A stretch of DNA of 64,000 nucleotides, taken from NCBI GenBank assembly GCA_027065555.1, contig JAMONS010000129.1, positions 195-64,194 on the forward strand, written 5' to 3'. Shown here piece after piece: positions 8,712 to 63,508 of the stretch. Source of the DNA: Hyphomicrobiales bacterium (GTDB lineage: Bacteria > Pseudomonadota > Alphaproteobacteria > Rhizobiales > Devosiaceae). Each line of letters begins with the position of its first letter. Within the stretch, counting starts at the first letter, position 1. The notes beneath the pieces were generated by a model, which was not told the DNA's origin, did no database searches, and saw only the letters and a list, made by a program, of their open reading frames with translations. Both the position numbers and the translations under genes were made by a program.

Positions 8712-9203
8712 TTATTGTAAGTGCCACAATAATCCAGCACTTATCTTTGTTGCATTTGGCGCAGCACCCCAAGCCCCAGTCCCTAAGACTTCGGCACGTA
8801 CACCAACTTGATCAATTAAGATAGCCTCAGCCCCACCACCAAAGGCGTAGGAGCCAACGCCATTTACAAGACCGCCACCCCCTGCTCCATAGACCATTAT
8901 AGTATCATTTATTTCATAACCAACTTTGCCAAGCATTAGCGCATCATAAGTCATTGTTGGAGCAAAATTTGCACCAACCTGCATTTCTGCACCAACTAAA
9001 ATACTATCAGTTACAACAAAATTAGCACCCGCAATACCGCCAGCGCTACCATTCATAGTTGGATCCATCATAGCACCACCGTAAGCACCAACATAGAAGC
9101 CTTCAAATTGTGAGAGAGAATAATAATCAGATTGCGCTAAAACGGCACTAGAGGAAATGCCTAAAGCCATAATTGCAATTAATGTTTTTTGAATAGTTTT
9201 CAT
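8712..9203 (-). CDS. Small Gly-rich outer-membrane beta-barrel (porin/Omp25-like family) protein
   Basis: 163 aa. Signal peptide MKTIQKTLIAIMALGISSSAVLA|Q, then alternating Gly/aromatic amphipathic strands. Has its own terminator. Confidence 0.7.
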   Translation of the reverse strand: MKTIQKTLIAIMALGISSSAVLAQSDYYSLSQFEGFYVGAYGGAMMDPTMNGSAGGIAGANFVVTDSILVGAEMQVGANFAPTMTYDALMLGKVGYEINDTIMVYGAGGGGLVNGVGSYAFGGGAEAILIDQVGVRAEVLGTGAWGAAPNATKISAGLLWHLQ

Positions 9204-9327
9204 TTGTAAGCTCCATTATAGATATTATCCATTAGATAGCTTTTGATACAAAATTTCAATGAAATGTTAACTAGTTGGCTAACGAATGGTTAATATTTGA
9301 GATGGCAGGAGCAAGCAATTTAGCGAG

Positions 9328-9523
9328 ATATAGAATGGGAAAAGAATAAACGGCGGGGGTGTCGGGGACGGGCAGCCTGCGTGGCGTGAACGCAAGAGAA
9401 AATGCAGCGACCAACGGCGACAAGTATAAAGAGGCCAAAGCCCTCCTACGCTCTATACTTCTTTTGGAGCTTCAGACGGCATAAGCAGTTCTAGAGCGAG
9501 CGTTGCTCACCAAAAACAGCTAA
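9328..9523. repeat. GC-rich modular intergenic repeat, one unit with a nested insert, abutting the 3' end of tRNA-Asp
   Basis: TATAGAATGGGAAAAGAATAAACGGCGGGGGTGTCGGGGACGGG...GCGACCAACGGCGACAAG. The same core occurs at 13280-13719, 33438-33499 and 63170-63421. Confidence 0.85.
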
Positions 9524-9600
<77 letters not shown>

Positions 9601-9716
9601 ATTTTAATTTTGCTACATATTGTGCAAAATATATTAGAAGGACTGCTGTGACTTAGTTCAGCTTTTTCGTGAAGTCAAGCACTTCACACACATAAATTTC
9701 ACTCAGGCAAAATAAC

Positions 9717-11132
9717 TTATTTCGAAATTCGCAAATTCAATAATTCGTCCGCTATTTCTTTAAATGCATCAGCTAATTCACCACTATCACTAGCATCAAA
9801 ATACGAACCACCATTTCCAGCGCAATCTTCCAACAAGTTCTTAATGGTACTATTAGTAACATCAAAGGCAATAGTATAAACTATTACTTCGTCATTATTG
9901 ATATTATCACAAAGGTCTTCAGTCAAATCATTGGCTGTTGCTGAGTTAGAGCCATTATGCCATGGATAACTAGGTGAGACCGTGTTTGCTCCGTCAGTCA
10001 TTAAGACCAAAACTTTTTTTAAATCATTTGATTTTGGTGCTGCATCTGTGAAAGGTATTCCTTGTGATAATAACCTCCAACCCCAAACTAAACCAGCGGG
10101 TATATAAGTATTGTCCCTTGCACTCATACTATTTATACCACTTAGAACATTTGCTCTAACATTGGTTAGACGAGTTAAAGGGTTTGCCCTACAAAAATTC
10201 CAACTATTAAGCAAACCCGGAACTTCTTCGCTAGCGTATGAATTATCTCGTATATTTAGGGGATAGTCTCTTGAACCAACACAACCAAACCATCTATATT
10301 GTCTAGGTGATCTGGGTGTACATGTCCATACTGGAGCGCCTAAAGACCCAGTACAACCTGTGCTTACCCACCTTTGACATGCATATGGCACGCCATCGCT
10401 GTAACAAGTATCAGGAACATTATAACCTGTACAGTTTCGTGTAGAATCTGGATAAGTATTTCGGCAATAATCAGGACGAGGAACAGAATAATCACTTGGC
10501 ACATCAATGCCCGGCTCATTCCTGTTATTCATACCAATATTAACATATCGAGAAAAAGGAACTAAGCCAATTTTAACCGTTCCCCCTGTTGCCTCTTCCA
10601 TTAATGTTGTTACCATATCCTGTGCCGCATCTTTAAGGGAGCTTATTTTAGAACCATTCATAGAAAAGGTTGTATCTAAAACCAGTGCTACTTCTAAATT
10701 TGAGGCAGAGATAATTACTTCTGAAAACACAGCAATATCAAGTTTATTAATACCTATAAATTTTATAAATATGGTTGGCATGGGATAAGAAGCATCAACG
10801 CGAATACCATCATCGATTTGAGTGGCAACTATTGTTGAACCTGCGCCTATGCCAATAGAGCGCAAATTATTACTATAAATATCTTTGGCAACTATTTGCA
10901 TTTTATCGAGATCATTTTTTGCAACACGTGCAACAGCAAGTGCCGCAGAATCTGTTGCATGTTGCATTTCAGCTCTAGTCGCACTAGCCTTAGAATAATC
11001 AACAGCACCGCCCGCAAGTACTATTAATGGAATAGCCATCAATGCAAAAATAACGGCGAATGAACCCTTATTTTCATATTTGATAAATCTAGCAAACTGT
11101 TTACTTAGTTTTGCAATATTAAATATTAGCAT
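9717..11132 (-). CDS. TadG-like protein: N-terminal Flp-pilus TadE/G-type helix plus a von Willebrand factor A domain with a Cys-rich insert
   Basis: 471 aa. N-terminus KGSFAVIFALMAIPLIVLAGGAVDYS, MIDAS-like LDTTFSMNGSK, C-terminal VIVYTIAF...CAGNGGSYFDA. Paralog of 11708-13189. Confidence 0.85.
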   Translation of the reverse strand: MLIFNIAKLSKQFARFIKYENKGSFAVIFALMAIPLIVLAGGAVDYSKASATRAEMQHATDSAALAVARVAKNDLDKMQIVAKDIYSNNLRSIGIGAGSTIVATQIDDGIRVDASYPMPTIFIKFIGINKLDIAVFSEVIISASNLEVALVLDTTFSMNGSKISSLKDAAQDMVTTLMEEATGGTVKIGLVPFSRYVNIGMNNRNEPGIDVPSDYSVPRPDYCRNTYPDSTRNCTGYNVPDTCYSDGVPYACQRWVSTGCTGSLGAPVWTCTPRSPRQYRWFGCVGSRDYPLNIRDNSYASEEVPGLLNSWNFCRANPLTRLTNVRANVLSGINSMSARDNTYIPAGLVWGWRLLSQGIPFTDAAPKSNDLKKVLVLMTDGANTVSPSYPWHNGSNSATANDLTEDLCDNINNDEVIVYTIAFDVTNSTIKNLLEDCAGNGGSYFDASDSGELADAFKEIADELLNLRISK

Positions 11133-11236
11133 GATTGGCCTTTTTAAATTCTAATTAGAATCTCTACTTTTAACAAAAAATAATAAAGATCAGTTTAACC
11201 AATTAGATAAAATTTTAATGACATAGATTTTATCGT

Positions 11237-11686
11237 TTATTTCACAAGACGAATATCGCCTCCAGAACCGCCGCCTAAGTCTGACAATTCTTCACCAATA
11301 TTTTCAATAGCATTTTCAAGCGCAATTCCAGTATTAACTTTTATATAATATCCACCATTGTCAGCGCAATTTTGCATCATAGTCGTAAGTCCATTATCAC
11401 TAACACCGACATTAATGCTGTAAATCCTAATGCCATCGGCCTTCATGTTGGTGCAAAGTGCTGCTAATTCAGCATTGGCAGCATCAATATTGCGCGCCCA
11501 TGAACCAGACTGCCCAGTGTTATGGCTTCTATTTTGTACTTTATCATTTACAAAGATAACAACTTTTAGATTATCATCTGAATATGGTAGCCCTTCAGTA
11601 TATGGAGCACCTGAAAGTGAAAGGATTGGAAGCAACACAACTGCAAAAATAACAGCAACTGCTCCCTTATCTTCTTGGGTAAAAAA
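11237..11686 (-). pseudogene. Internally deleted and 5'-truncated TadG-like VWA paralog
   Basis: The frame reads (stop)FFTQEDKGAVAVIFAVVLLPILSLSGAPYTEG..., i.e. the TadG N-terminal helix joined directly to the C-terminal third of the VWA domain (IRIYSINVG...CADNGGYYIKV). There is no ATG; the only start is a GTG inside the helix (11638). Confidence 0.7.
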
Positions 11687-11707
11687 TTAGATATAAAATT
11701 ACAACAA

Positions 11708-13189
11708 TTACTTAGAAATACGTAATTTTCTTAGTGAATCAGCAATATCTTCAAATGCTGCTTCTAATTCAGAACTATTATCAGCATCATAATAAGAACC
11801 ACCATTGCCTGCACAGTTTTGTAAAATCTCTTCAATATCGCTATCATCAACATCAAAGGCAATTGTATAGACAATAATATTATCGCCTCTTATATTACCG
11901 CATAATTCTTCAGTCTTTTCATTTGCATCATCTACATCATCACCATAATGCCATGAATCTACGTTTGAAGGCCTTGCGCCCTGATTGAGCATCCATTGAT
12001 AACCTCCAATACCTATTGATCGAGTATTAGCTCCATCAGTTAATATCACCATTACTTTTTTATTGGCATCCCCATAAGGTGCTGCATCAGTAAATGGCTC
12101 TGCATTTGACAGCAATCGCCATCCCCATATTAAGCCAACAGGTATATAAGTATAGGAGTGGTTATTTTGAGCAGTTCTCATTCTTGATATAGCACTTCGA
12201 ATGGTATCTTCATCAGAGGTTAAGCGTGTCAGAGGTCTGGTGGCCCAATAAAGATTCCAGCGTGTCATTAGACCAGGTACGGGGTCTGTATCATATGATT
12301 CATCGGTGACATTTAAGGGGTAATCACGTGAACCCATACTGCCATACCATCTAAATCGATAATCACTGCGTGCACTACATACCCATACTCTCTCGCCCCT
12401 ATCTCCAGTACAATTAAAATAGCGCCATCTTTGGCAAGTAGTTTCAACGCCATCAACTACACAATCATAACTCACTCTTTCTCGCTCACAGCTACGTGTT
12501 GAATTAGGATAAGTCCAACGACAAGAATCTGCTTGTGGTACTGAAAAATCATCGGGAATATCAATTCCCGGCTCATCTCTATTAGACGTACCGATATTTA
12601 CAGCTTGGGTAAATGGGACAAGACCTACCCTGATATTATCATTGTCAGCCCCTGAGAACAACTCCGTCACCAACAAATCTGCGGCAGTTTTAAGACCATC
12701 CATCTTTTCTCCATTCATAGAGAATGTATTATCAAGCACCATCACTACTTCTATGCCTAAAAGAGAATCCACCACTTCGGAATACACACTGACTTGTAGG
12801 CTGGATATGCCTATTAACCTCAAGAAAGATGTATTAATTGACGTTGTAACATCAACTCGTACACCGTCCTCTAATCTGGTTGCAACTAGTTCTATATTGT
12901 TTGCAAATGCGGCATTTACTAAATTATCGGTAAAAACATTTTCTGCAATTTCTTGCATTTCCTCATCATCATTCTTATCAGCCTTTACAGCTGCAAGAGC
13001 GGCTACATCTACTGCCACTTGCATTTCTGAACGTGCCGATGAAACCGCTGAATAATCTACCATAGCCCCTGAAAAAGCCAAAATCGGCAAAAGGACGATA
13101 GCAAAAATAACAGCAACTACGCCTTTGTCTTCTCTTGTTAAGAACTTCAAAAACGATGATGATATTTTAGACAATGAAAATGATTGCAT
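11708..13189 (-). CDS. TadG-like protein: N-terminal Flp-pilus TadE/G-type helix plus a VWA domain with a Cys-rich insert
   Basis: 493 aa. REDKGVVAVIFAIVLLPILAFSGAMVDYS, LDNTFSMNGEK, IIVYTIAF...CAGNGGSYYDA. GAGGG Shine-Dalgarno 6 nt before the ATG. Confidence 0.85.
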   Translation of the reverse strand: MQSFSLSKISSSFLKFLTREDKGVVAVIFAIVLLPILAFSGAMVDYSAVSSARSEMQVAVDVAALAAVKADKNDDEEMQEIAENVFTDNLVNAAFANNIELVATRLEDGVRVDVTTSINTSFLRLIGISSLQVSVYSEVVDSLLGIEVVMVLDNTFSMNGEKMDGLKTAADLLVTELFSGADNDNIRVGLVPFTQAVNIGTSNRDEPGIDIPDDFSVPQADSCRWTYPNSTRSCERERVSYDCVVDGVETTCQRWRYFNCTGDRGERVWVCSARSDYRFRWYGSMGSRDYPLNVTDESYDTDPVPGLMTRWNLYWATRPLTRLTSDEDTIRSAISRMRTAQNNHSYTYIPVGLIWGWRLLSNAEPFTDAAPYGDANKKVMVILTDGANTRSIGIGGYQWMLNQGARPSNVDSWHYGDDVDDANEKTEELCGNIRGDNIIVYTIAFDVDDSDIEEILQNCAGNGGSYYDADNSSELEAAFEDIADSLRKLRISK

Positions 13190-13279
13190 GAGGAACCCTC
13201 CAAGTACTTGAAATTTTACCTTAGATGAAAAAAATAAATATTAATTAAAGGCGAATAATAAAATTTTATCTAATATTAT

Positions 13280-13719
13280 GGTGGGGTCGGGAGCGTAAGA
13301 GACTAACAGCCTGCCCGTACTAGATACGGGGCGGCAAGAATAAAGAAAAGCAACTTAGCCAATTATAGAATGGAAAAAGAATAAACGGCGGGGGTGTCGG
13401 GGTTGGGAGCATAAGCGACCAACGGCGACAAGAATAAAGAAAGCAACCTAACAAGATTATAGAGTGGGAAAAGAACAAACGGCGGGGGTGTCGGGGTCGG
13501 GAGCGTAGCGACCAACGGCGACAAGAAAAAATGAGACCAACGGCGACAAGAATAAAGAAAGCAACAGCGCGCCCTACGCTCCTAATGGAGCTACGGAGCG
13601 GCATAAGCTATTCTAAGGTTATTATAGGATTTTAGTTTGTTTCTGGCAGTCCGCCTACGCCAAGGCTTCGGTGGACATAAGCTATTCTAAGGTTCACTAT
13701 GTTCACCAAGAATAGCTAA
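13280..13719. repeat. Array of three units (about 95-bp period) of the GC-rich modular repeat plus hairpin modules, abutting the 3' end of tRNA-Val
   Basis: Units begin at about 13280, 13387 and 13480 (GGCGGGGGTGTCGGGGTYGGGAGC...GACCAACGGCGACAAGAATAAAGAAAGCAAC). Followed by hairpin modules CCCTACGCTCC..GGAGCGG and GTCCGCCTACGCCAAGGCTTCGGTGGAC. Confidence 0.88.
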
Positions 13720-13795
13720 TGGTGGGCGATGAGAGACTCGAACTCCCGACATCCTCGGTGTAAACGAGGCGCTCTACCAACTGAGCTAATCGCCC
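13720..13795 (-). tRNA. tRNA-Val (anticodon TAC)
   Basis: Reverse complement GGGCGATTAGCTCAGTTGGTAGAGCGCCTCGTTTACACCGAGGATGTCGGGAGTTCGAGTCTCTCATCGCCCACCA, with anticodon loop TT-TAC-AC. Confidence 0.93.
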
Positions 13796-13875
13796 TAAAG
13801 GGTGAAACGATGTAAAATTATCGCTTAGTGTGAATGGGATATTGTGTTGTGAGCCTTTCGTCAACTTTTCTTTTC

Positions 13876-28238: not shown

Positions 28239-28439
28239 ATGCCAGACTTCCCTCTGCCGTCATGTCGTTGAAAAACGGCATCCAGCAGCCCTTTGAATTT
28301 ATAAAAATTGCAGTTAATAACTCTAATTTTTGCAAAACAGAAGAAGTTAGGAGTGAATTTTCTTAAATTAATATAAAGAAAACAACGCTAATGGATACCG
28401 TTTTTCAACGGCATGACGATTGAGAGTGACTTCCAGCAT
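28239..28439. repeat. MITE-like element: about 45-bp imperfect terminal inverted repeats around an AT-rich 109-bp core
   Basis: Left arm 28239-28283 ATGCCAGACTTCCCTCTGCCGTCATGTCGTTGAAAAACGGCATCC. Reverse complement of right arm 28393-28439 ATGCTGGAAGTCACTCTCAATCGTCATGCCGTTGAAAAACGGTATCC. About 36 of 45 positions match, with one 2-nt indel. Confidence 0.7.
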
Positions 28440-32317: not shown

Positions 32318-33499
32318 ATGGCAATAAACTCCTTAAAGGGGCTAACTGGCCAACTGACTATTGATTTGGGGGCCATTGTTAAAAATTATCAGGCGCTAAA
32401 TGCAATTAGCGCCAATTCGCTAACGGGTGCTGTTGTAAAGGCAGATGCCTATGGTTGTGGCATGTTGCCTGTTGCTAGCGTTCTTTATCAGGCTGGGGCT
32501 AGGTTTTTCTTTGTAGCAACGCCAAGTGAAGCGATTGTTCTAAGGGCTGAATTAAAAGACGCTCATATTTTTGTGTTTAATGGCCTATATCCAAATTCAG
32601 CAAAATTATATGTAGAACAGCGCATAATGCCAATATTAAACTCAGCCCAAATGCTTGAAGAATGGCTATCATTTTGCATTGCAAATAATGAGTTATTTCC
32701 AGCGGCAATTCATTTCGATACCGGAATGGGACGGCTTGGCATTAAAATGAATGAAGTCGATTGGGTAAAAGACAAGATTTCGCAAGTTGGGTTTTTGCCG
32801 CAAATGATTATGAGCCATCTTGCTTGTGCTGATATTTTGGGACATGAAAAAAACCGTATGCAGCTAATTTTTTTCAAGGCTATTGCAAAACAATTTCCAA
32901 ATATTCCTTTTTCTCTTGCCAATTCAGCTGGCATAATGAGCGGGCGGGCAAATCACTTTCAAATGGTTCGTCCAGGAATTGCGCTTTATGGTGGACGAGC
33001 AATTAACGGCAAGCCAAACCCCATGAAACCAGTGGTTAATCTCAAAGTCCCTGTGTTACAGGTTTTTGATGCAAAAGCTGGTGAGACTATTGGCTATGGC
33101 GCAACTTACACTATTGATAGAAATAGCAAAATTGCTATTTTGGCACTTGGATATGCTGATGGTTTCTTGCGCTCACTTTCTGGCACAAATTCTAGGCATG
33201 GCGGGCGCATTCTTATCAATAATAAAATATTACCTGTAATTGGTCGGGTTTCAATGGATTTAATCGCTGTTGATGTAACTCAACTACATGGATTGGGGCC
33301 AAACCCCGGTGATATGGTAGAGGTTTTAGGCAATATAATATCTATTGATGATCAGGCTGATCTGGCAGGAACTATTGGTTATGAGATTTTAACCTCCCTA
33401 AAAGGTCGATATAATAAATCATATATTTTACCCAACGAGAGAAAGAATGGCGGGGGTGTCGGGATCAGGAGCGTTAGCGACCAACGGCGACAAGAATAA
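32318..33499 (+). CDS. alr: Alanine racemase with a repeat-derived C-terminal extension
   Basis: 393 aa. PLP lysine motif VVKADAYGCG. Conserved end IGYEILTSL..RY, followed by about 20 extra residues (NERKNGGGVGIRSVSDQRRQE) read from the intergenic repeat. Confidence 0.93.
   Translation: MAINSLKGLTGQLTIDLGAIVKNYQALNAISANSLTGAVVKADAYGCGMLPVASVLYQAGARFFFVATPSEAIVLRAELKDAHIFVFNGLYPNSAKLYVEQRIMPILNSAQMLEEWLSFCIANNELFPAAIHFDTGMGRLGIKMNEVDWVKDKISQVGFLPQMIMSHLACADILGHEKNRMQLIFFKAIAKQFPNIPFSLANSAGIMSGRANHFQMVRPGIALYGGRAINGKPNPMKPVVNLKVPVLQVFDAKAGETIGYGATYTIDRNSKIAILALGYADGFLRSLSGTNSRHGGRILINNKILPVIGRVSMDLIAVDVTQLHGLGPNPGDMVEVLGNIISIDDQADLAGTIGYEILTSLKGRYNKSYILPNERKNGGGVGIRSVSDQRRQE
33438..33499. repeat. 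Single copy of the GC-rich repeat core embedded in the alr 3' end / radA start junction
   Basis: GAGAGAAAGAATGGCGGGGGTGTCGGGATCAGGAGCGTTAGCGACCAACGGCGACAAGAATAA matches the core at 9341-9425, 13376-13440 and 63326-63375. Confidence 0.88.
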
Positions 33500-34875
33500 T
33501 GCCAAAAAATCGCTCCTCATTTATTTGTCAATCTTGCGCTGCAATTTCCACTCAATGGGCGGGGCGATGCGAAGCGTGTGGGGAATGGAATTCAATAATT
33601 GAAGAATTACAAAATACAGGAGTTGGCTCTGGGCCAAAAGCCACAAAGGCTTCGGGCAAACCAGCACAACTTTCTTCACTTCGCGGCAAGCCAGAAGATG
33701 CGGAGCGTATAATTTCTGGACTAGCAGAATTAGATAGAGTAAGCGGCGGTGGTTTTGTTAAAGGCTCAACAATGTTGGTCGGCGGCGATCCCGGAATTGG
33801 TAAATCCACACTATTATTACAAGCGGCAAGCGCTTTAGCTAACAAAGGATATTCAGTAATTTATATTTCTGGAGAAGAAGCCATTGCGCAAGTGCAATTA
33901 CGTGCCAAAAGGCTTGGTCTAGCAGATAGCCCTGTTAAACTAGCCAGCGAGACCAATGTTGAAATAATTCTATCAACTCTCGAACATCAAAATGGAGCAG
34001 ATTTAGTTATTATTGATTCTATTCAAACATTATGGACAGATAGAGTTGATAGCGCTCCCGGTACTGTGACACAAGTTAGAACCAGCGCTCAGGCACTTAC
34101 CAGATTTGCCAAAAAAAGCGGTGCAGCAGTTGTTCTGGTTGGGCATGTAACTAAAGACGGGCAAATTGCAGGACCTCGTGTTGTTGAACATATGGTTGAT
34201 GCAGTGGTTTATTTTGAAGGCGATGCATCTCATACCTATAGAATTTTACGTGCTGTAAAAAACCGTTATGGCGCAACTGATGAAATTGGTGTGTTTGAAA
34301 TGACCCAAAAAGGTCTTAGCGAGGTTAGTAACCCCTCTGCCCTGTTTCTTGATCAGCGTGATGAAAGCGCCACTGGTTGTGCGGTATTTGCTGGAATGGA
34401 GGGCACACGTCCATTATTAGTTGAAATTCAAGCATTAGTTGCTCCCTCACCGCTTGGCACGCCAAGACGGGCAGTTGTTGGCTGGGATAGTTCAAGATTA
34501 TCAATGATTTTAGCGGTACTTGAAACCCATTGCGGGGTAAAAATTGGCGCAAATGATATATATCTCAATGTTGCAGGCGGTTTAAAAATTAGCGAGCCTG
34601 CCGCTGATATGGCGGTAGCTGCGGCGCTTATTTCTTCACTCACAAATCGAGTATTACCAAAAGAGGCAGTGTTTTTTGGCGAAATCAGCCTCTCAGGCGG
34701 CACTAGAGCAGTCGTACATTCAGCATTAAGATTAAGAGAAGCTGCAAAACTTGGATTTACGAGCGCATACACTGGAAAATTTAGTTCTGAAAAAACAAGT
34801 TCTGCCATCAAATTGATCGAATTCGCTGATCTGTTAGCATTAGTTAGTAAAATTGGCTCTTTTAAGGACGGCTAA
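33499..34875 (+). CDS. radA: DNA repair protein RadA
   Basis: 458 aa. Zinc finger CQSCAAISTQWAGRCEACGEWNS, Walker A GDPGIGKST and the KNRYG motif. Confidence 0.96.
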   Translation: MPKNRSSFICQSCAAISTQWAGRCEACGEWNSIIEELQNTGVGSGPKATKASGKPAQLSSLRGKPEDAERIISGLAELDRVSGGGFVKGSTMLVGGDPGIGKSTLLLQAASALANKGYSVIYISGEEAIAQVQLRAKRLGLADSPVKLASETNVEIILSTLEHQNGADLVIIDSIQTLWTDRVDSAPGTVTQVRTSAQALTRFAKKSGAAVVLVGHVTKDGQIAGPRVVEHMVDAVVYFEGDASHTYRILRAVKNRYGATDEIGVFEMTQKGLSEVSNPSALFLDQRDESATGCAVFAGMEGTRPLLVEIQALVAPSPLGTPRRAVVGWDSSRLSMILAVLETHCGVKIGANDIYLNVAGGLKISEPAADMAVAAALISSLTNRVLPKEAVFFGEISLSGGTRAVVHSALRLREAAKLGFTSAYTGKFSSEKTSSAIKLIEFADLLALVSKIGSFKDG

Positions 34876-63169: not shown

Positions 63170-63421
63170 AAAAAAATGAGCAAAGCAACCAACTACGACC
63201 AGCCTTAACGATGGAGCATGGAAAAAAATAACGGCGGGGGTGTTCCGCCTACGCCAAGGCTACGGCGGACAAGCGGGGTCGAGAGGGTGAATAACCCAAA
63301 GGCAACAAGAATAAAAATGCGTAAGGAAAAAGAATAAACGGCGGGGGTGTCGGGGACGGGAGCGTAAGCGACCAACAGCCTGCCCCGTACTAGATACGGG
63401 GGCGACAAGCATAAAAGAGCA
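63170..63421. repeat. Two units of the GC-rich modular repeat with nested hairpin modules, abutting the 3' end of tRNA-Leu(GAG)
   Basis: Unit 1 core GGCGGGGGTGT is interrupted by TCCGCCTACGCCAAGGCTACGGCGGA. Unit 2 is GGCGGGGGTGTCGGGGACGGGAGCGTAAGCGACCAA plus the nested CAGCCTGCCCCGTACTAGATACGGGGG. Confidence 0.85.
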
Positions 63422-63508
63422 TGGTGCGGTCGAGAAGACTCGAACTTCCACGGGTTTTACCCCACAGCGACCTCAACGCTGCGCGTCTACCAATTCCGCC
63501 ACGACCGC
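63422..63508 (-). tRNA. tRNA-Leu (anticodon GAG)
   Basis: Reverse complement GCGGTCGTGGCGGAATTGGTAGACGCGCAGCGTTGAGGTCGCTGTGGGGTAAAACCCGTGGAAGTTCGAGTCTTCTCGACCGCACCA. Long variable arm; anticodon loop TT-GAG-GT. Confidence 0.92.

Follow-up and report, generated by a model that had tools for sequence, protein, structure and literature searches.

The window analysed here, a 64,000-nt stretch of contig JAMONS010000129.1 (positions 195 to 64,194) in assembly GCA_027065555.1 of a Hyphomicrobiales bacterium of the family Devosiaceae, carries at 13280-13719 an array of GC-rich hairpin repeats. The array lies directly 3' of a tRNA-Val(TAC) gene on the minus strand (13720-13795), and its C-rich strand is the tRNA strand. 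The initial annotation had described three tandem units of about 95 bp, which is roughly right: Tandem Repeats Finder returned a 94-nt period at 13330-13531 (2.2 copies, 88% matches), and the array comprises two full cores, 13387-13438 and 13481-13531, each preceded by the leader ATAGARTGGRAAAAGAAYAAAC, together with a truncated first unit and a 3' half-unit. Read along the plus strand, the first unit (13280-13344) is a core truncated at its 5' side that starts with GGTGGGGTCGGGAGC, holds a nested hairpin in its 3' half (13313-13331; GCCCGTA-CTAGA-TACGGGG) and ends in the tail AAGAATAAA (13336-13344). It is followed by the leader module of unit 2 (13345-13386; …AGCAACTTAGCCAATT-ATAGAATGGAAAAAGAATAAAC), the first full core (head GGCGGGGGTGTCGGGG, an inner hairpin, then ACGGCGACAAGAATAAA), the leader module of unit 3 (13439-13480), the second full core (GGCGGGGGTGTCGGGG…ACGGCGACAAGAATAAA) and the solo 3' half-unit (13532-13556; GAGACCAACGGCGACAAGAATAAA). 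The distinct hairpin modules reported to follow the array were found at 13566-13599 (GCGCCCTACGCTCC-TAAT-GGAGCTACGGAGCGGC), at 13650-13676 (TCCGCC-TACGCCAAGGCTTC-GGTGGAC, a module present also at 63244-63270 and elsewhere in the genome) and at 13680-13718 (AGCTATTCT…AGAATAGCT), all on the plus strand, the last of them abutting the 3' end of tRNA-Val.

The same core recurs at three other sites in the window, again on the plus strand, as had been annotated. At 9330-9430 a leader and core (head at 9352) carry a longer nested module, CTGCGTGGCGTGAACGCAAG (9377-9396), in place of the inner hairpin, and further hairpin modules continue as far as 9523; this array lies directly 3' of tRNA-Asp(GTC) (9524-9600, minus strand). 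A single core, shared with the sister-species locus L051, is located between alr and radA (33449-33500). Near the end of the window, a head-only variant (63233-63270; GGCGGGGGTGT followed by a TCCGCC…GGCGGAC hairpin) precedes a core at 63340-63415, whose tail ends 6 nt from tRNA-Leu(GAG) (63422-63508, minus strand), this array also being directly 3' of the tRNA gene. Five full heads and several partial ones are consistent with the earlier count of at least seven core copies in 64 kb. The hairpin CCCCGTA-CTAGA-TACGGGG is nested within the 3' halves of two cores, at 13313 and 63383, and modules are also exchanged, as seen in the replaced inner hairpin at 9377 and in the joining of a head to another hairpin at 63233. 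Since the modules nest in and recombine with each other, the term mosaic is apt, and the analogy to the arrays of bacterial interspersed mosaic elements (BIMEs) and Rhizobium intergenic mosaic elements (RIMEs) is a fair one.

Alignment of all copies divided the element into four parts: a near-invariant G-rich head (GGCGGGGGTG[T/C]CGGGG, also written GGCGGGGG, with the head form GGCGGGGGTGTC), a middle that varies, a 3' part that is conserved ((C)AACGGCG[A/G]CAAG) and the A-rich tail AAGAATAAA. The consensus of the core, GGCGGGGGTG[T/C]CGGGG–hairpin–ACGGCG[A/G]CAAGAATAAA, is 51 nt long, or ~94 nt with the optional leader of ~40 nt that may stand before it. The head and the 3' part form an outer helix of 5 bp (TGYCG/CGRCA), in which the T/C of the head faces the A/G of the 3' part; the combinations observed were T-A 88 times, C-G 29, T-G 4, C-A 2 and G-A 1. 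The middle forms an inner hairpin of 6 bp. Its main variant, GG-GA-GC / GC-GA-CC, contains a tandem G·A/A·G and has loops of 3-4 nt (AAA, GAA, GTA, GTAA or GCAA). In other copies very different perfect stems take its place (for example GCGCCC/GGGCGC, GGGCTG/CAGCCC, GCAACC/GGTTGC and GCGGTC/GACCGC), and most copies in Maritalea depart from the main variant in carrying many different perfect stems at this position. In an alignment of 61 sequences, 98% of the outer-helix cells were paired, with pair 11-41 being UA in 33 copies and CG in 25, and double changes were seen at all six pairs of the inner helix. The covariation score was 0.281, compared to 0.111 for column shuffles (reached in 0/500) and at most 0.095 for slid partners. 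This pattern of substitutions supports a predicted two-helix hairpin fold. An alternative inner register, GGTCG/CGACC, was rejected, as its covariation was lower and the common GGACG variant breaks it.

The repeat is abundant far beyond chance. In our own assembly (G000; 2.06 Mb in 139 contigs, 39.1% GC, 93% complete), a 15-nt head pattern had 48 matches with at most one mismatch, versus 0 for the reversed control pattern, and 54 with at most two mismatches; an nhmmer profile found 66 full or partial copies. Many copies lie at contig ends, and the true number is therefore higher. A strict two-anchor pattern, run against 185,579 species with a single genome representing each, returned 68 loci, almost all of them from uncultured Devosiaceae/Hyphomicrobiales metagenome-assembled genomes (MAGs) of ~39-40% GC or from Maritalea (M. 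mediterranea, M. porphyrae, M. mobilis and one Maritalea MAG); one locus came from a 'Devosia sp.' MAG. No match to this pattern was found in Rhizobium, Sinorhizobium, enterobacteria or Rickettsia. Two of the 68 were odd hits, one being a 'Thiotrichaceae' contig (locus L011, JALVRY010000325.1). This contig (39% GC, two element copies) shares 89% identity with contig C8 of G000, and probably belongs to the same Devosiaceae genus and was mis-binned.

With a covariance model derived from 61 distinct copies, 30 of the 151 genomes of Devosiaceae examined were found to carry the element. All five genomes of our own genus (g1) had a match, one of them only a single weak hit, as did all nine of the Maritalea-like genus g7, with 23 to at least 42 copies each; genera g18 (8/9 genomes) and g39 (2/2) held few copies, and the two largest genera of the family held none (0/41 and 0/40). 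A complete Maritalea-like relative, G011, has 29 copies. On its contig C2 (loci L091-L119), 17 of 22 copies are on the plus strand, nearly all within 0.14-1.28 Mb, an excess that may reflect a replichore or regional bias invisible in our fragmented genome. A scan against Rfam 15 gave only tRNAs above the gathering score and nothing relevant at E<=1 across 9200-13800, and the 16-mer head was not found in the literature searched. The genome-wide and family-wide searches bear out the earlier description of an unnamed, GC-rich modular family in an AT-rich genome, and the element is apparently an undescribed member of the palindromic repeats that resemble repetitive extragenic palindromes (REPs) and Rickettsia palindromic elements (RPEs).

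The element is nearly free of stop codons in all six frames, and it therefore creates spurious open reading frames (ORFs) and lengthens real ones at either end. An example of the former, as had been pointed out, is a 94-residue minus-strand ORF at 13320-13604 encoding a …SRPRHPRRLFF… peptide. The initial annotation had regarded such peptides as spurious throughout, and in this respect it has to be corrected: when the copies were mapped relative to genes, about a third proved to lie inside or fused to protein genes, in frame, and many of these are real housekeeping genes. Internal copies were found in glucose-6-phosphate isomerase (Pgi), aminopeptidase N (PepN), FolC, an Aas-like AMP-binding enzyme, a metallophosphoesterase, an autotransporter and malate synthase G, the last being the sole antisense case. 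Others lie in the linker that joins the two GTPase domains of Der and in the tail of a DEAD-box helicase, two copies in a GPAT-type acyltransferase, a remnant in an MBL-fold hydrolase, and three tandem copies in an ArsR-type regulator, where they split the helix-turn-helix domain (G000:C100:15658-16185). In three further proteins the element supplies the C-terminus: FtsW, a histidine kinase and, in the window, alanine racemase (alr), the last 17 codons and stop of which are derived from the copy at 33449-33500. The tail of this copy overlaps the radA start codon (TAATG). In several of the host proteins Pfam domains were recognised both before and after the insert. According to a crude ORF map, the G-rich strand of intragenic cores is nearly always the coding one, and all three frames are used, yielding the peptides GGGVGDGS.ATNGDKNK, (M/T)AGVSGSGAKRPTATR and RRGCRGREQSDQRRQ.

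Comparison with close relatives showed that these inserts come and go. Pgi carries a clean insert of 17 residues (51 nt; its junctions lie within …KPYHQRDLRRGCRGREQSDQRRQDIRAHF…) that is absent in four congeners, one of which has a Pgi 89% identical to ours; the protein measures 552 residues here, compared to 537-547 in homologues across the Devosiaceae. In an AlphaFold2 model (80-sequence alignment, mean predicted local distance difference test (pLDDT) score 85.3, predicted template modelling score 0.89), insert residues 172-184 were placed as coil with pLDDT below 50, flanked on one side by a helix (153-164) and on the other by a strand (189-193), so that the insert is modelled as a disordered loop. 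Der is ~30 residues longer than an orthologue that is 96-99% identical. The ArsR-like gene has other copies at the same spot in G003, a footprint (GGTGGGGGCG|ACAAGAATAAA) in G005 and an empty site in G001, G002 and G004; in the orthologues of this regulator (L079-L083) the recurrent insertion position is just before the CCC motif. The Aas-like gene has one or two copies in each of three genomes. Sister species (88-92% identical DNA) bear copies, absent here, in ispG, ccmA, the linker of sucB (E2), a HEAT-repeat protein and an oxidoreductase, the last a clean 51-nt insert flanked by GAAT…GAAT. All ten length differences within coding sequence were multiples of three (51, 51, 45, 42, 42, 39, 33, 78, 24 and 12), whereas the intergenic ones (176, 87, 67, 62, 38, 25 and 11) mostly were not, 18 being the exception. 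Assembly artefacts were ruled out, since the pepN, folC, alr-radA and aas-like inserts are common to independent MAGs. The intragenic copies are probably translated and close to neutral.

The orientation of the element was tallied by locus for 44 loci. The G-rich strand was sense in seven ORF-internal cases and antisense in one; adding der and the small arsR gene would tilt this count further. In spacers between co-directional protein genes it was sense in eight cases and antisense in one. Next to tRNA 3' ends the distribution was reversed, none of the loci being sense and six antisense; at three of these six a protein gene is in convergent orientation, and at the other three a gene on the same strand lies downstream. 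Spacers downstream of tRNA genes were strongly enriched in cores (6/27, versus 15/1084 of other spacers; odds ratio 20, p = 5e-6), and at several loci the end of the A-rich tail lies 4-14 nt from the CCA end of the tRNA. The antisense arrangement at tRNA 3' ends was also seen in L037 (a Hyphomicrobiales MAG of the Devosiaceae clade) and in G011. In the latter, a copy at ~1501-1544 of locus L104 (G011:C3:1968-5011) sits antisense in the spacer of an rRNA operon, 7 nt 3' of tRNA-Ile and before tRNA-Ala.

Several possible causes of this pattern were rejected. No tRNA 3' fragment of 9 nt or longer was duplicated in any of the six arrays, which removes attachment sites made of tRNA fragments; the G-rich strand matched the local GC skew at 20 of the 44 loci, as opposed to what an effect of the replication strand predicts; and AAGAATAAA and its shorter versions were about equally frequent on the sense and antisense strands of genes (ratios 0.63-1.13), which speaks against a strand-biased A-rich target. 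The sense-frame peptides are hydrophilic and rich in Gly, Ser and Lys (grand average of hydropathy -0.9, -0.3 and -2.8), while of the three antisense frames two encode peptides that are hydrophobic and high in Pro (+0.6 and +1.1); therefore only sense insertions would survive in genes. In operons, the transcript of an antisense copy would be C-rich and G-poor and would load Rho, a property that would be harmless or useful after stable-RNA genes. The orientation bias accordingly appears to reflect selection, on peptide hydropathy within genes and against a C-rich, Rho-loading transcript within operons.

We consider it likely that the repeats are selfish, non-coding interspersed hairpins of the REP/RPE type, specific to a small clade of marine Devosiaceae that comprises an uncultured low-GC genus, Maritalea and a few neighbours. 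This reading draws on the observed repetition of the element, its conserved fold, its presence or absence between close species, the preservation of reading frames, the orientation biases, the association with tRNA genes and the lack of a REP-associated tyrosine transposase (RAYT). The copies seem to have spread by an insertion process, through some enzyme or host function. Under such a scheme the sequence of the inner 6-bp hairpin would be free to vary provided that pairing is kept, and copies would be gained, lost with footprints left behind, tandemly duplicated and nested into each other. They would survive only at sites where little harm results: in spacers, especially immediately 3' of tRNA genes, and in protein linkers or loops that are flexible, where the reading frame would be preserved and translation would add 14-30 hydrophilic residues. 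Deletions between short direct repeats inside the element (GGCGG…GGCG) do leave footprints, and one deletion between GGCGG repeats was observed on contig C45. Purifying selection on individual sites was rejected: the identity of orthologous cores (0.83) was below that of their flanks (0.91). Identical master sequences nevertheless occur at many non-orthologous sites in several species, and the combination fits continuing amplification or homogenisation and turnover rather than a function exerted site by site.

A number of observations weigh against this explanation. G000, G001, G003-G005 and the complete G011 gave no match to the Y1_Tnp domain (PF01797), which covers both RAYT and the TnpA of IS200/IS605, and the other transposases of G000 amount to 2-3 rve hits or fragments and one broken IS110, with no DDE_Tnp_1. 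There are no clear terminal inverted repeats beyond the 5 bp of TGYCG/CGRCA, and a target duplication is visible in one clean case only, the GAAT…GAAT insert. Some 'empty' alleles are possibly old deletions and not pre-insertion sites, so the direction of an event is not always known. Folding energies of single sequences were modestly better than those of shuffles (z -1.2 to -2.7), and the case for the fold therefore rests on covariation. Finally, a purely neutral element does not account for an unpaired head of 16 nt that hardly varies from genus to genus. One tentative extension, which we regard as possible rather than probable, is that the hairpin is actively moving without a transposase of any known type, its invariant G-rich head being recognised by an enzyme or host factor shared by Maritalea and its low-GC relatives that would direct copies 3' of tRNA genes in a fixed orientation.

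An alternative is that the element, or at least its tRNA-linked arrays, acts as a signal at the level of RNA. According to this proposal, transcription from the tRNA strand yields a trailer, rich in C, poor in G and partly structured, that loads Rho or blocks exonucleases and so terminates or insulates the transcription of stable RNAs, and a G-rich sense copy is a harmless or stabilising hairpin in a 3' or 5' untranslated region; such a role would be compatible with a selfish origin. The strong enrichment downstream of tRNA genes, the uniform antisense orientation of all six loci and its repetition in another genus, and the 8 to 1 sense excess in co-directional mRNA spacers would all follow from it, and neither the replication strand (20/44) nor a biased A-rich target (ratio ~1) accounts for the orientation. 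Moreover, folding of the complete 450-nt array clearly surpassed that of shuffled sequences (z -3.7), and REPs, which lie mostly downstream of ORFs, are thought to act as RNA. Nevertheless, the element is missing from 21 of the 27 tRNA-downstream spacers, its presence varies between close species, and orthologous copies are not conserved above their flanks. Consensus scans for intrinsic terminators or promoters in the arrays did no better than shuffles, and the canonical intrinsic terminators did not exceed expectation (3 found, 4.0 expected). We hold a function of this kind to be doubtful.

A further suggestion, raised by the G-run pattern that is indeed present as first described, is that a G-quadruplex arises from the conserved head on the plus strand and is itself selected, as a pause site for replication or transcription or as a site for protein binding. 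The near-invariance of the 16-nt head across genera, with only five of its bases in a helix, is in line with such a structure, as are high G4Hunter scores, which express propensity only (2.44 for the 16-nt head and 1.96 for the 24-nt head; the head oligonucleotide is GGCGGGGGTGTCGGGGTCGGGAGC). However, conservation extends to only three tracts of at least three G residues; many variants and the majority of Maritalea copies lack the fourth (GGGAGC), and TGYCG, a part of the head, is taken up by the covarying helix. Selection for a quadruplex appears improbable.

The resemblance to BIMEs and RIMEs noted in the initial annotation stood up as far as the mosaic arrays are concerned, but did not extend to membership of the BIMEs and probably does not extend to that of the RIMEs. 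Being palindromic, interspersed and arranged in mosaic arrays, the repeats could in principle be a classical REP/BIME family (REPIN) moved by a RAYT, or MITEs (miniature transposable elements with inverted repeats) derived from a resident insertion sequence (IS). GTAG/CTAC motifs occur in some accessory hairpin modules, and the TG…CA ends of the outer helix may recall IS3-type ends. Mobilisation by a RAYT or IS200-type enzyme was rejected after PF01797 had been searched in our own genome and 40 relatives: control genomes matched, only G002 had a match among five congeners, and the domain was missing where the repeat is abundant, as in G011 with its 29 copies. As the Y1/RAYT transposase was not found, the element is not a member of the BIME/REPIN family, and it is probably not a RIME either. 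Copies run head to tail and not as inverted dimers, and there is no replication-strand bias. As for features of MITEs, a second insertion event was flanked by TAAG-like bases, and no parent IS was found in G000. The only rve gene that adjoins a copy belongs to a dead IS3 that the repeats have invaded. This IS3-family remnant lies outside the window, by a tRNA-Pro gene (G000 contig C25:1930-2730); a repeat array replaces its 5' part, and its frame is broken near …MSRRGNC|WDNAVVENF… by a hairpin module of ~25 nt, AGCCTGCCCTCGGGCT. The IS was hence the recipient of the repeats and not their parent. An origin of either type is very improbable.

Comparison to the individual families leads to the same distinction. 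Like the REP, BIME and REPIN sequences of enterobacteria and Pseudomonas, the element consists of extragenic palindromes that form mosaic spacer arrays with other motifs; unlike them, its core lacks GTAG (its ends being GGCGGGGGTG and CAAGAATAAA), the copies of an array are all on the same strand without inverted doublets, no RAYT gene was found for it, and the scan of 185,579 species did not find its sequence in enterobacteria. RIMEs (Østerås et al. 1995, cited in PMC2573895) are described there as mosaic intergenic palindromic repeats of Hyphomicrobiales, and thus share with the element both the mosaic palindromic build and the order of the host; they are set apart from it by that description as intergenic, and no Rhizobium or Sinorhizobium match was found among the 185,579 species.

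The least credible proposal, that the intragenic copies are functional protein modules (linkers or binding motifs such as GGGVGDGS-ATNGDKNK) of which the DNA repeat is a by-product, would explain why frames are kept and why copies lie in linkers (Der, E2) and in the helicase tail, but it is already disfavoured by the unrelated peptides (GGGVG…, AGVSG…, RGCRG…) that the same DNA encodes in all three sense frames, by the abundance of identical DNA in non-coding spacers, by the presence or absence of inserts between near-identical orthologues and by the disorder of the Pgi insert in the model.

Considered as a selfish hairpin, the element stands closest to two described groups, the CGTC-tagged, transposase-less REPs of alpha-proteobacteria and the RPEs of Rickettsia, whose behaviour, though not whose defining structure, it shares. 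The CGTC REPs (Di Nocera, De Gregorio & Rocco 2013, PMC3733652) occur mainly in alpha-proteobacteria, include RPE-4 and RPE-6 of Rickettsia, and have had no dedicated transposase found for them. Each has one stem of 8-9 bp with A/T pairs at the first two positions, a loop of 4-5 nt and a CCA tail; they are mostly head-to-head dimers, and the tag, CGTC or TGTC/CCTC, is unpaired at the end of the stem-loop (PMC3733652). Both families are short, palindromic and interspersed, have alpha-proteobacterial hosts and no dedicated transposase found, and are often located near the ends of ORFs and sometimes inside them in frame. A tag may also be recognised on the C-rich strand of the element: in Maritalea, and in roughly one local copy out of four, this strand has …GCCGTC followed by the inner stem; in the main variant …GCCGTT precedes the stem, and TGTCG opens the outer helix. 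The element differs in its two GC-rich helices (5 + 6 bp, with the tandem G·A) and loops of 3-4 nt, its 16-nt G-rich head, its A-rich tail, its head-to-tail arrays and its association with tRNA 3' ends.

RPE-1 and related elements, in the account of Ogata et al. 2000 given by PMC10969869, are ~100-150 bp long and are found in obligate intracellular bacteria. Together with the palindromic elements of Wolbachia they are presented in that source as selfish palindromes of AT-rich alpha-proteobacterial genomes, a large share of which lie in frame in unrelated housekeeping genes and are tolerated there as an extra peptide, and for which the mechanism of mobilisation is not known (PMC10969869). By comparison, the element has a core of 51 nt (~94 nt with leader), inhabits Devosiaceae that include cultured Maritalea and environmental MAGs, and shows a strong sense-strand bias and an association with tRNA ends; its sequence appears unrelated to that of RPEs, the strict pattern having matched no Rickettsia among the 185,579 species.

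A more distant parallel is offered by the GC clusters of yeast mitochondria and the double-hairpin elements of fungal mitochondria, which are short GC-rich hairpins in a very AT-rich genome that nest and occasionally sit in frame inside genes. They resemble the element in being scattered, nesting and sometimes in frame, and differ from it in being organellar and unrelated in sequence.

Two other features of the window were recorded. Between the tRNA-Asp and tRNA-Val arrays lie tRNA-Asp itself and, in the region 9717-13189, three tandem TadG/VWA-like paralogues (ORFs of 471, 133 and 493 aa). The other feature, at 28258-28418, consists of two inverted repeats of 32 nt, with 88% complementarity and 97 nt between them, and is unrelated to the GC-rich family.

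The practical consequences concern assembly and annotation. The element breaks MAG assemblies, many of its copies being at contig ends, and it is a trap for gene callers, in that it makes spurious ORFs and extends or fuses real ones (alr, ftsW and the histidine kinase); annotators of the Devosiaceae genomes that carry it should therefore mask it. As for its biology, the family stands out by its unusually high intragenic share, its strict orientation pattern and its association with tRNA 3' ends. The antisense placement at these ends, conserved across genera, could reflect either a choice of target or a Rho-related function. The family bears on how RPEs and CGTC REPs move and how they enter genes without destroying them, as states of insertion, deletion and footprint are visible between close species. 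The best-known cases of the RPE type belong to obligate intracellular bacteria, which are hard to manipulate, whereas the clade studied here includes cultured Maritalea. If the element is indeed actively moving, cultured Maritalea would provide a tractable model for the spread of RPE-type selfish DNA in genes, with the same element translated inside a dozen or more essential proteins.

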